Source: Dehalococcoidia bacterium
GTDB lineage: Bacteria; Chloroflexota; Dehalococcoidia; Bin125
DNA: 64,000 nt
Assembly (NCBI GenBank): GCA_963663235.2
Contig: CAXXNO010000011.1
Coordinates: 64,001 to 128,000, forward strand
Direction of reading: 5' to 3'
Under the pieces are notes generated by a model. That model had not been told where the DNA came from. It did not search any database and saw nothing but the letters and a program-made list of their open reading frames with translations. A program made the position numbers and the translations under genes. This document shows, in pieces, positions 46,770-64,000 of the stretch. Position 1 is the first letter of the stretch; every line of letters begins with the position of its first letter.

Positions 46770-48812
46770 ATGAGCGGGTGGGCATATTTCTCCGACGAAC
46801 ACGGAATCGGGCGGCCCGAGACTGGGCTAGTGCGTGAAGAAGTCCCGGAGCGAGTGAGACATGCGCTTGTCCACTACCTGGGGGACCGAGATGGATTCCG
46901 TCTTTCTGAAATGTGGACATGGATCGTGTATCAGTTGGATTGGAATCCTAACCTGGTGCGCGTGACCTGCCCCCCCAGAACCGGTCCAGATCCTGTGCGA
47001 GGATTCGGGCCGGTGCGAAGGGAGTCGGCATGGCACGCAAGCGGTACGCGGCCGAGGAGATCATCGGCAAACTGCGGGAGGCGGAGGTGGTGCTCGCGCA
47101 GGGGGAATCGGTCGCGCCGGTCGCGCGCCGCCTCGGCGTGGCCGAGCCAACGTATTACCGCTGGCGGCGGGAGGACGGGGGGCTGCGGGTCGACCAGGGG
47201 CCAAGCGGCTGAAAGAACGGGAGCGCGAGAACAGTCGGCTGAAGCGGGTGGTGGCCGATCAGGCGCGGGCCAACGCGATGGTGGGGGACGTCGCAGCGGG
47301 AAACTTCTGCGCCCGGCCCAGCGGCGCCGGGCGACATCCTACCGCACGGACCCGTACGCGGTGTCGGAGCGGCGGGCCTGCCCGGTCACCGGCCAGGCGC
47401 GGGCGACACAGCGCTCCGTGCCCCGGCCGTCCCCGGATGAGCCGGCGCTGATCGCGCGCAGCGTCGCGCTGGCCCCCCGCTGCGGCCGCTACGGCTCCCG
47501 TCGCATCCCGGCCCGGCTGCGCCAGGCGGGCTGGCGGGTGAACCCCAAGCGGGTCGAGCGGCTCTGGCGTCAGGAAGGCTGGCGGGTCCCCGGGAAGCAC
47601 CCCCAACGGGGCCGCCTCTGGCTCGCGGCCGGCGCGCTGGTGCGGCGGCGGGCCGAGCGGCCGTCCCACGGCTGGTCCGACGCCTTCGGCTTCGACCGCA
47701 CCGCCGATGGGCGCCCGGTGCGGATCCTCGCCATCGTGGATGAGGACCACCCGCGAGGGCCTGCGTCTCGACGTCGCCCGCCGACGGCGCCGCGACGACG
47801 GCCTGGCGCGGTTGGCCCAGCTGTTCGTCGAGCGCGGGCCGCCGCCGTTTCTGCGGTCCGCCAACGGCCCGGCGTTCACCGCCACCGCGGTGCGGGACTG
47901 GCTGCACCGGGTCGGGGGCACGACCCGCTTCATCGAACCGGGCAGGCCTTGGGCGAACGGCTCTGGGGAATCGTTCAACGGCAAGCTGCGCGACGCGTGC
48001 CTCAATCGCGAGCGCTTCGACACCCTGCTGGAAGCCCAGATCCTCATCGCGGGCTGGCGGCGGGAGGACAACCCGATCCGCCCCCACCGTGCCCTCGGCT
48101 ACCGCCCCCCCGCCCCGGAAACGCAGCAACCCCGGGAACGTCCCATGACGCTCGTCCCGGCGATCGGACTCACTTAACGACTGGTACAACGATCGGGGGC
48201 AGGTCAGACCTATGGAGCGCCATTTTCTATTACGTGCGTGATAAGAGCAGCTACGGGTTATTTGGCGCGAATGAGTTCCTGAACTTTCTCAACTCGCGAC
48301 TGATTCGACACTACTCTGCGTACCAGATGGACGAGACGGGCCGGATGATTGAGCCAGGTGCTGCGCCTGCGAATGAAGCGATTGCCGAGGCGCGGGCGCT
48401 CCTGGCGGAGGATCGTTTCCGAGGTCCGGATAGGCAATATCAAGAGGCGTTGGAGGCGTTTTACCGACGCCCCGATCCGAACTGTGAAGCGGCTGTTTCG
48501 AATGCAATCAACGCGACCGAGGGCGTTGCGCGCGTCGTCCTTGATAACAGCAACATCAATCTTTCGGATGCGCTGAAGCGAATCCAAGACGAGCGAGACT
48601 TACACCCAGCGCTCTCCGAGAGCATGGTCAGGCTATACGGGTATGCTTCGGACGAGGGCGGCCGACACGGACTGGTCGGAGATCCGAGAGTGGATCGCCC
48701 GATCGCCGAGTTCTGTTTGCACCAGTGCGCAGCGGCAATTGTGTTCTTAGCGCGGCTCTATAGTGCAGAAGTGGTGGAGGGGCCACGGGCATCTGCAAAC
48801 GCTGAGTCATAG
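46770..48812 (+). pseudogene. AbiJ-NTD4/HEPN-like gene interrupted by an IS3 element
   Basis: Host parts 46770-46962 and 48207-48812: FS..HG..., SAYQM, LHPAL...LYGYASDEGGRHG. Confidence 0.7.
46963..48206 (+). mobile_element. IS3-family element, degenerate (OrfA about 47030-47310, OrfB to 48177)
   Basis: TGACCTGCCCCC...GGGGGCAGGTCA terminal IRs; MARKRYAAEEIIGKLREAE OrfA; ESFNGKLRD and RPH..LGY in OrfB; frameshifts; no target duplication seen. Confidence 0.93.
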
Positions 48813-63192: not shown

Positions 63193-63391
63193 GGGGGGGT
63201 CTCCCGTCGGGGGGATAGTAGCGGTTGGGGAGGGACTTGTTCCGTCGCTGGTTGGTTGGCCGGTTACTGGGTAGCGGCGCCACGCTCGACATGACGATGG
63301 GCGTTTATGCGCACCGGGTCTCGGCTGGACTCGGACGTTAGGATGTGACCGGATAGGCAGGCTCTCGTGGCTTTCCGACCGGTTCGCATCC

Positions 63392-64000
63392 TGACCTGCC
63401 CCCGATCGTTGTACCAGTCGTTAAGTCGTTAAGTGAGTCCGATCGCCGGGACGAGCGTCATGGGACGTTCCCGGGGTTGCTGCGTTTCCGGGGCGGGGGG
63501 GCGGTAGCCGAGGGCACGGTGGGGGCGGATCGGGTTGTCCTCCCGCCGCCAGCCCTCGATGAGGATCTGGGCTTCCAGCAGGGTGTCGAAGCGCTCGCGA
63601 TTGAGGCACGCGTCGCGCAGCTTGCCGTTGAACGATTCCCCAGAGCCGTTCGCCCAAGGCCTGCCCGGTTCGATGAAGCGGGTCGTGCCCCCGACCCGGT
63701 GCAGCCAGTCCCGCACCGCGGTGGCGGTGCACGCCGGGCCGTTGGCGGACCGCAGAAACGGCGGCGGCCCGCGCTCGACGAACAGCTGGGCCAACCGCGC
63801 CAGGCCGACGTCGCGGCGCCGTCGGCGGGCGACGTCGAGACGCAGGCCCTCGCGGGTGGTCCTCATCCACGATGGCGAGGATCCGCACCGGGCGCCCCTC
63901 GGCGGTGCGGTCGAAGACGAAGGCGTCGGACCAGACGTGGGACGGCCGCTCGGCCCGCCGCCGCACCAGCGAGCCGGCCGCGAGCCAGCGGCGGCCCCGT
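63392..64000 (-). mobile_element. Second copy of the IS3 element (right part; truncated by the window end)
   Basis: Near-identical to 47606-48206 in reverse orientation, IR TGACCTGCCCCC at 63392. Confidence 0.95.

Follow-up and report, generated by a model that had tools for sequence, protein, structure and literature searches.

Dead copies of one insertion sequence (IS) in a Dehalococcoidia genome have diverged chiefly through A:T-to-C:G transversions (A:T>C:G). The window, by which we mean the whole 64,000-nucleotide stretch that was analyzed (G000:C11:64001-128000), holds one complete copy and part of a second copy of this 1244-bp element of the IS3 family. Its source, G000, is a metagenome-assembled genome (MAG) of 2.75 Mb in 14 contigs, with 68-70% GC and 92% completeness. 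The direction of change is secure, two catalytic residues of the transposase are lost in the family, and the signature is real and confined to dead copies of this IS group, so that no genome-wide process is implied. As the cause we tentatively propose, at a probability of roughly one in three, misincorporation of guanine (of the 8-oxo-dGTP type) opposite adenine during re-synthesis of the element triggered by transposase, followed by short-patch shuffling of the changes among copies.

Substitution spectrum of the element family

The ends of the repeat unit were set by BLAST against the genome. G000 holds 12 full-length copies inside contigs and five partial copies at contig ends, 97-99% alike, together with two copies of a relative at 85% identity. 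The 17 copies differ at 69 alignment columns. When these were polarized by the 85% relative, A:T>C:G accounted for 46 of 67 changes, alongside 8 G:C>A:T, 6 A:T>G:C, 3 G:C>T:A, 3 G:C>C:G, and 1 A:T>T:A. Both strands were affected to a similar degree (on the plus strand, 25 A>C and 21 T>G) in an element whose A+T content is only 26%. Across all 66 pairs of the 12 full copies, the share of A/C or G/T differences (AC/GT) ranged from 0.62 to 1.0, with a median of 0.86. Outgroup copies from genome G003 (same family, other genus; 95% identity) gave the same picture: of 21 changes that have become fixed in the G000 family, A:T>C:G made up 18. The ancestral A/T states encode W-S-Y-D-F, S-D-N-G-P-E-F, and P-W-E-N-G-Y-V-E-S-F, which intact relatives have kept; because these are conserved transposase motifs, the direction A:T>C:G is secure.

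All of the A:T>C:G changes replace an amino acid, in contrast to the remaining changes, most of which are synonymous. Of the 314 A/T sites of the element, just 9 permit a silent A:T>C:G, and at the other 305 it alters an amino acid. Among the 12 full copies, A:T>C:G made up 40 of 45 shared variants and 8 of 16 singletons, and 2-3 of those 8 singleton changes recur in contig-end copies. At positions where all sequences from outside G000 agree, the private changes of copy 1 were A:T>C:G without exception (20/20). Sequence context had a limited effect and no strict motif emerged: A/T sites with a G/C neighbor on each side had changed in 28% of cases, versus 14% for the rest. The density of A:T>C:G was 9% in the first 155 bp, at the left end, and 23-34% in the middle of the element. 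Two local mechanisms were ruled out. Dislocation (neighbor-templated) mutagenesis fails on the top T>G context, CTC (14/41), which has no G neighbor, and a repair gradient initiated at the ends fails on the density, which has its minimum rather than its maximum there.

Dead and working relatives

The same class of change marks other dead members of the IS group. In the dead clade of G003, 15 of 28 derived changes were A:T>C:G; in the decayed copy G005_o80, from a third genus, the count was 42 of 69 private changes; and in a solitary relic of another IS lineage (C14:1-531), which has no partner above 75% identity, it was 22 of 44. The working lineages behave otherwise, with A:T>C:G shares of 1/35 in the 85% relative, 4/59 in IS-B, and 6/76 in IS-C. 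Because nearly all such changes are nonsynonymous, selection would remove them from working elements and A:T>C:G would be invisible there. The G000 family and G005_o80 have changed in parallel at the same catalytic and neighboring codons, and they have 21 A:T>C:G sites in common versus 10.6 expected (P = 2e-4).

Three comparisons among relatives were set aside. The five IS-B copies in G003 carry zero substitutions, hence no spectrum, and are of no use as a spectrum control. The two 85% relatives cannot serve as a neutral control, since 7 of their 12 differences lie within 92 bp and are mostly silent, which suggests an imported tract. The overlap of variant sites between G003 and G000 was not taken as evidence of hot spots, being partly due to one G003 copy that lies nearer to the G000 clade.

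Origin of the differences between the two window copies

Copies 1 and 2 were compared by local alignment of window positions 47300-48260 with the reverse complement of 63300-64000. A single block was obtained (47606-48207 against 64000-63391), spanning 602 columns with 8 substitutions; copy 2 has in addition one insertion of 8 bases. This agrees exactly with a first-pass annotation of the window, made from the sequence alone, which had listed these eight sites as seven A/C or T/G differences, one A/T, and no transition. The bases in copy 1 and copy 2, respectively, are T/G at 47617, 47708, and 47876, G/T at 47634, 47671, and 47689, A/T at 47798, and C/A at 48050. Against the background of other repeats of 95-99% identity in the genome, where AC/GT has a frequency of 0.206 and transitions one of 0.58, the probability of at least 7 AC/GT in 8 is 1e-4 and that of no transition in 8 is 1e-3. 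Over the full length of the two copies (copy 2 extending to G000:C11:128643), the differences comprised 17 AC/GT, 2 C/G, 1 A/T, and 0 transitions. The earlier count of derived alleles also proved right with relatives as outgroups, save at 47708, where the outgroups disagree; copy 1 has the derived G/C at four sites (47634, 47671, 47689, and 48050), and copy 2 has it at two (47617 and 47876). The 8-bp duplication described in copy 2 is a direct one, adjacent to the end of the element, and among copies covering the site it is present only there. The +1 insertion and both Asp-to-Ala changes are common to the two copies, each of which carries GAGGACCACCCG and the GCC codons.

The annotation had further supposed that each copy gained its own changes after duplication, and this did not stand. 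None of the eight differences is private (0/8), every allele being common to 2 to 11 other copies, and copy 2 lacks private A:T>C:G changes altogether. Counted over the copies that span a given site, the alleles split T 4/G 11 at 47617 and 47708, G 4/T 11 at 47634, 47671, and 47689, A 8/T 7 at 47798, T 3/G 12 at 47876, and C 7/A 7 at 48050. Copy 1 belongs to a small sub-lineage with the C9 copy and the copies at the ends of C4 and C6, and copy 2 to a larger one. Judging from this distribution of alleles, the eight differences are inherited from the two sub-lineages or were exchanged by recombination, and were not gained in place. That the process continued after copying held for the first duplications, as the two sub-lineages have different derived alleles and some private A:T>C:G changes do occur.

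Controls in other DNA and in other phyla

The remainder of the genome was surveyed for the same signature. Among 140 other repeat pairs in G000, none with at least 6 mismatches had an AC/GT share of 50% or more, and the share was 17-25%; in repeats of at least 99% identity, AC/GT made up 29 of 117 differences. At 4-fold sites of G000 paralogs there were 295 C/G, 205 transitions, 60 AC/GT, and 6 A/T. The best control is a minisatellite behind nth (G000:C8:33892-34686), made up of repeats of the coding 3' end of that gene, which offers dead, multi-copy DNA that is not an IS. Compared with the functional end, it has 9 A:T>G:C, 6 G:C>A:T, 5 G:C>C:G, and 1 A:T>C:G; it too drifts toward GC, via transitions (9 versus 1), unlike the IS copies. 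Around copy 1, the 35 strain variants listed for 18.8 kb of unique sequence comprise 18 transitions, 8 AC/GT, 5 C/G, and 4 A/T. Finally, AC/GT differences were the majority in 0 of 48 alignments of related IS copies from other phyla, chromosome-level MAGs included. Because the other DNA examined and the related IS in other phyla are transition-rich, we conclude that the signature is real and restricted to the element.

Between the C10 copy and the copy at the end of C12, a shared 3.5-kb flank differs by 9 transitions and 2 C/G, and 461 bp of the IS differ by 7 AC/GT and 1 transition. These copies were considered as alleles of one locus, but their insertions lie 157 bp apart and they are not allelic. 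Near-identical repeats (99.4-99.9% identity) occur at several contig ends, namely C12:1-10285 with C8:231960-221676, C12:54196-63477 with C9:139293-148579, C4:1-6423 with C4:55715-49293, C10:2-3540 with C12:467335-470873, and C12:49801-52926 with C6:3125-1. They often adjoin IS copies and their differences are transition-rich; strain haplotypes or recent segmental duplications may account for these repeats.

Contigs from four sequencing runs in two studies also contain the insertion of copy 1. They cross from its unique flanks into both ends of the element, the flank contigs stopping at 46989-46991 and resuming at 48180-48207, and they hold AC/GT-type alternatives at all five internal sites listed (47383, 47617, 47845, 47876, and 48050). 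The run data consist of contigs only and give neither phasing within a copy nor copy number, and each copy's haplotype is therefore taken from the assembly.

Inactivation and possible movement in trans

Wherever G000 copies extend over the two catalytic Asp codons (15 of 15), both codons have become GCC (Ala), which bears out the earlier view that an already dead element was duplicated. The +1 insertion, which had been taken as the inactivating lesion, turned out not to be this family's own killer. The allele GAGGACCACCCG is present in 13 of 14 G000 copies, 4 of 5 G003 copies, and both 85% relatives (2/2), and it is absent from the C10 copy of G000, from G003_c, and from the G005 copies and IS-B; orfB of IS-C reads straight across the site (IVDEYTRECL). 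In the 85% relative the allele sits in a patch of at most 15 nt between that lineage's own variants, and downstream of the site the private changes of that relative are 8 silent versus 1 replacement. The allele is thus polymorphic within three diverged lineages, which points to very-short-patch exchange or to a frameshift that is tolerated.

The dead family occupies 12 different insertion sites and is no source of transposase; therefore a related intact element would have had to move the copies. Movement in trans through intact inverted repeats, as the first-pass annotation had suggested, is plausible: the 12-nt repeats are intact everywhere, the termini of IS-C match them, and A:T>C:G is sparsest near the left end. 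The intact helper that such movement calls for has a candidate in IS-C (G000:C14:9712-10955), a relative with complete OrfA and OrfB on the 37-kb contig C14. IS-C has 74.5% nucleotide identity to the dead family, and its outermost 13 nt at the left end and 12 nt at the right end are those of the dead family. Contig C14 also bears the heavily decayed relic of yet another lineage described above.

Mosaic structure of the copies

The variants are distributed among the copies as a mosaic. The four-gamete test was failed by 243 of 595 informative site pairs (41%), at a rate of 10% for pairs less than 25 bp apart and about 35-56% at larger distances. Hot spots alone were ruled out as the cause, because the effect of context is only about 2-fold, yet most A/T sites are unchanged everywhere and others are changed in many copies. 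G003 contains two occurrences of a 2061-bp composite in which a truncated dead copy is joined to IS-B, at C1:1649964-1652024 and C1:1191572-1193632 (L113 and L114). The two have unrelated flanks, and for that reason the composite seems to have moved as one unit. They differ at three positions, each of the AC/GT class, which cluster in 42 bp of the dead part; in IS-B they do not differ. Taken together, the four-gamete failures, the +1 allele in a small patch between foreign variants, and this cluster of three changes suggest that short-patch exchange among copies is real.

Architecture of the element and its insertion sites

The coordinates of the two copies and their parts are collected in Table 1. 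Intact relatives, namely IS-B (L020, genome G003) and IS-C, have a 92-aa OrfA that ends at the GGGAAAC heptamer, which we take to be a slippery motif, and an OrfB that goes on in the -1 frame. In Pfam searches on an intact relative, OrfA matched HTH_Tnp_1 at 4e-20 and OrfB matched HTH_21, rve, and rve_3 (for IS-B, rve at 9e-22 and rve_3 at 5e-30). The window copies retain remnants of this OrfA/OrfB layout, and the tail of copy 1 still matches rve_3 at 3.5e-21. By descent they are IS3-family members, and their predicted products are non-functional as transposases. The terminal inverted repeats of every copy start with TG and finish with CA, and the orfA remnant in copy 1 is shortened by a 2-base insertion specific to its sub-lineage.

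Table 1. Positions of the element copies and their features in the window
Feature	Position	Strand	Basis
Copy 1, full-length non-autonomous IS3-family element	46963..48206	+	BLAST ends; flanks of 17 aligned copies diverge exactly there
Left terminal inverted repeat, TGACCTGCCCCC	46963..46974	+	All 12 nt match the right end (reverse complement) in every copy
orfA remnant, 60 aa, HTH_Tnp_1-type (92 aa in intact relatives)	47030..47212	+	Open reading frame (ORF) list, alignment, Pfam on OrfA of a relative
GGGAAAC heptamer in the orfA/orfB overlap, likely -1 frameshift site	47298..47304	+	Conserved in all relatives; orfB in the -1 frame in intact ones
First catalytic Asp codon changed to Ala, GAC>GCC (A>C change)	47682..47684	+	GAC within W-S-Y-D-F in relatives
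+1 frameshift allele, GAGGACCACCCG	47742..47753	+	GAGTA-CAC at this site in intact relatives
Second catalytic Asp codon changed to Ala, GAC>GCC	47860..47862	+	S-D-N-G-P-E-F in relatives
Right terminal inverted repeat, GGGGGCAGGTCA	48195..48206	+	Alignment of copies
Copy 2, right-hand 609 bp, cut by the window end	63392..64000	-	Whole copy is G000:C11:127392-128643
8-bp direct duplication, private to copy 2	63427..63434	-	Pairwise and multi-copy alignment

IS3 elements typically make short target-site duplications of 3-5 bp. None was found at the 12 full-length G000 copies (0/12), copy 1 with its flanks 46953-46962 and 48207-48216 among them, or at the two IS-B flanks read in G003. Three left flanks finish in GAGAAGA or GAAGAAGA(C), a hint of some target preference. 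Copy 1 splits an AT-richer ORF (46770-46962 and 48207-48812), both halves of which continue across the insertion. The left end of copy 2 adjoins a 141-bp tandem repeat of 2.8 units with 74% match (G000:C11:128648-129038). From G000:C8:207974 onward, a left IS end runs into a long stretch of C, at least 18 beyond the usual 7; this end belongs to the second copy of a 7.6-kb duplication. Six further G000 loci (C4:39162, C8:64132, C8:221983, C11:47497, C12:9721, and C12:39372) have the same weak rve score of 30.6 bits and a 278-aa open frame each; they look like another, probably active, IS family.

A possible source in transposition-linked synthesis

The explanation that we put forward, with odds of about one in three, places the source of the changes in the copying of the element. 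Element DNA would be re-synthesized outside normal chromosome replication, with a transposase nick supplying the primer, as in copy-out-paste-in transposition. Guanine, most likely as 8-oxo-dGTP, would be placed opposite adenine in that synthesis and then fixed. Copies on which a helper fires repeatedly would collect A:T>C:G, selection would purge the same changes from working elements, and short-patch recombination among copies would shuffle the changes into the mosaic. We infer both the link to transposase-triggered synthesis and the identity of 8-oxo-dGTP as the chemistry. As described in two papers (PMC10625568, PMC13212565), mutT mutants undergo largely context-independent T>G changes through 8-oxo-G opposite A. 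A preprint describes copy-out-paste-in as synthesis of a circular copy primed by a 3'OH, with the donor regenerated, and places an error-prone PrimPol at the circle-synthesis step in other hosts (bioRxiv 10.1101/2023.06.07.543989). A source tied to the element is favored because a host-wide bias clashes with the controls and because conversion cannot create the private changes of the relics. The excess of A:T>C:G in shared variants (40/45 versus 8/16 in singletons) fits mutation on lineages that are being copied and is counted here in favor of transposition-linked synthesis. Y-family polymerase genes are represented in G000 by three IMS hits. One IMS-domain gene (C12:57236-57634 and C9:142331-142729) lies inside a duplicated 9.3-kb segment, a few kilobases from IS copies.

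Several results weigh against a source in transposition-linked synthesis. The data tie no specific polymerase or step to the changes, and a domain search of G000, a genome 92% complete, found no Prim-Pol domain. The error rate would have to be well below one per transposition event, because five IS-B copies are without substitutions. The three changes within 42 bp in G003 resemble a recombination patch rather than a copying error, and the mosaic, with 41% of site pairs failing the four-gamete test, demands recombination or recurrent hits regardless. Private changes are less biased than shared ones, which a drive through biased conversion would explain equally. The phasing of variants within copies rests on the assembly alone, and the dead family's mode of movement is uncertain because the lack of target-site duplications is unusual for IS3. 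The best match to MutT (TIGR00586) in G000 scores 34.6 bits against a cut-off of 97.9, a result that is uninformative given that only 3 of 14 control genomes reach the cut-off.

Alternative sources of the bias

MutY turns A/G into C.G in heteroduplexes in the E. coli literature, and a drive of this kind can be imagined in which a MutY-type A/G glycosylase corrects A.G to C.G in very short heteroduplex patches, so that rare A:T>C:G changes spread and other variants stay private or are erased. Such transversion-biased gene conversion would account for the mosaic and its 41% four-gamete failure, the excess of A:T>C:G in shared variants over singletons, the +1 allele confined to a patch of at most 15 nt in the 85% relative, and the three changes clustered in 42 bp of the G003 composite pair; G000 also has a MutY-like gene, at 206 bits under a cut-off of 286.5. 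We nevertheless consider it unlikely, since conversion creates no alleles: the 20 of 20 private changes in copy 1, the 22 in the partnerless C14 relic, and the 42 in G005_o80 need a mutational origin. The nth minisatellite, multi-copy and prone to recombination, has 9 A:T>G:C versus 1 A:T>C:G, and by our own estimate about 95% or more of ordinary mutations would need erasing. The same minisatellite, in the same genome, speaks against a bias of the MutT-deficiency type across the whole host, visible only where selection is absent since nearly all A/T sites in these GC-rich genes are constrained. Neutral or nearly identical host DNA likewise lacks it, with 60 AC/GT versus 205 transitions at 4-fold sites, 29 of 117 AC/GT in repeats of at least 99% identity, and 8 of the 35 listed strain variants in 18.8 kb of unique DNA; the dead-copy ratio, scaled by the transition clock, predicts, on our own estimate, several-fold more A:T>C:G at neutral host sites than the observed maximum, and intergenic GC, crudely measured, is about 67%. 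We therefore hold a host-wide bias to be quite unlikely, even though the class of the signature equals that of mutT mutants, three genera of one family show it, nearly every possible A:T>C:G in the element (305 of 314) would replace an amino acid, and the equilibrium GC that we calculate from dead-copy rates (about 93%) is near the paralog GC at 4-fold sites (92%). The absence of a MutT match at the cut-off (best 35 versus 97.9 bits) adds weakly to that side, as only 3 of 14 control genomes reach it.

A dedicated function of host or element that recognizes IS ends or copies and mutates A:T pairs, as a bacterial counterpart of repeat-induced point mutation (RIP), would fit the limitation of the signature to this IS group, its recurrence in three genomes and three dead lineages, and the parallel codons in G000 and G005_o80 (overlap of 21 versus 10.6 expected, P = 2e-4). 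It is improbable: no candidate gene is linked to the copies, no enzyme chemistry is known to yield A:T>C:G directly, the overlap of sites is explicable by the context effect (28% versus 14%), and the young active IS-B family is unaffected. The wider notion of a process aimed at the element, whether host defense or a built-in property of copying, that rewrites A:T to C:G, disables the transposon, and acts as a natural GC-raising force on mobile DNA, is likewise quite doubtful. An artifact of assembly or sequencing, such as polishing of collapsed repeats or systematic base-calling error in multi-copy MAG sequence, is very improbable. G000 is a 14-contig MAG with near-duplicate contig ends, the C5 contig-end copy shows 10 gap openings, the variants form a mosaic, and the runs have no recorded sequencing technology. 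Many variants nonetheless split cleanly into two lineages, 7 sites having one common pattern, and low-frequency errors are not the source of the variants because derived alleles are the majority at many sites. Moreover, the signature is present in relics that exist as one copy and absent from working relatives and host genes in those assemblies; in comparable MAGs of other phyla, the related IS copies are rich in transitions; and both the insertion and the alleles occur in contigs from four runs of two studies.

Relation to known systems and significance

The window copies resemble the IS3 family in their length of 1.24 kb, their TG...CA terminal repeats, and, in intact relatives, OrfA with HTH_Tnp_1 and OrfB with HTH_21/rve/rve_3 in the -1 frame. 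They differ from it in having lost two of three catalytic residues, in the extra +1 frameshift that most carry, and in the absence of target-site duplications. With non-autonomous IS mobilized in trans, such as elements resembling miniature inverted-repeat transposable elements, they have in common intact ends, an inactive transposase everywhere, 12 occupied sites, and an intact relative with matching termini; the dead copies are full length rather than miniaturized, however, and their movement in trans is presumed. The signature of MutT deficiency (8-oxo-dGTP) is alike in being nearly pure A:T>C:G, on both strands (PMC10625568). Here context dependence is weak, and the signature is not genome-wide but found only in dead copies of one IS group.

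Other processes that alter repeated or variable DNA match less well. In fungi, RIP produces C:G>T:A transitions in duplicated DNA of any kind. The present case is similar in that transposon copies decay by mutation and the rest of the genome is spared, but the change is A:T>C:G (G:C>A:T only 8/67), a solitary relic is affected, and 140 repeat pairs and the nth array are not. GC-biased gene conversion, the subject reportedly of work by Lassalle et al. in 2015, and short-patch repair by MutY would share with our data the direction toward GC, the mosaic among copies, and the excess in shared variants; unlike what GC-biased conversion would give, only transversions are favored here, partnerless relics have private changes, and the nth minisatellite lacks the signature. 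Diversity-generating retroelements change A to any base, on one strand, and need a reverse transcriptase. They too act at A:T pairs, whereas here 25 A>C and 21 T>G fall on the same strand, A>T occurs at 1 site, and A>G is rare.

Mutations that arise spontaneously in bacteria are as a rule rich in transitions and biased toward AT, and genes in decay usually drift toward A+T. The dead transposon family described here moves the opposite way, through a single rare class of change, and does so in three genomes. A full-text literature search, the coverage of which excludes subscription journals, found no report of element-restricted A:T>C:G decay in bacteria in the text that it reached. If a conversion drive or a targeted process were at work, the finding would bear on how GC-rich genomes stay GC-rich and on whether bacteria inactivate transposons by mutation. 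If transposition-linked synthesis is the source, this would be the first sign that copy-out-paste-in transposition is strongly mutagenic for the element itself, and the sequence of an element would record the history of its mobilization.

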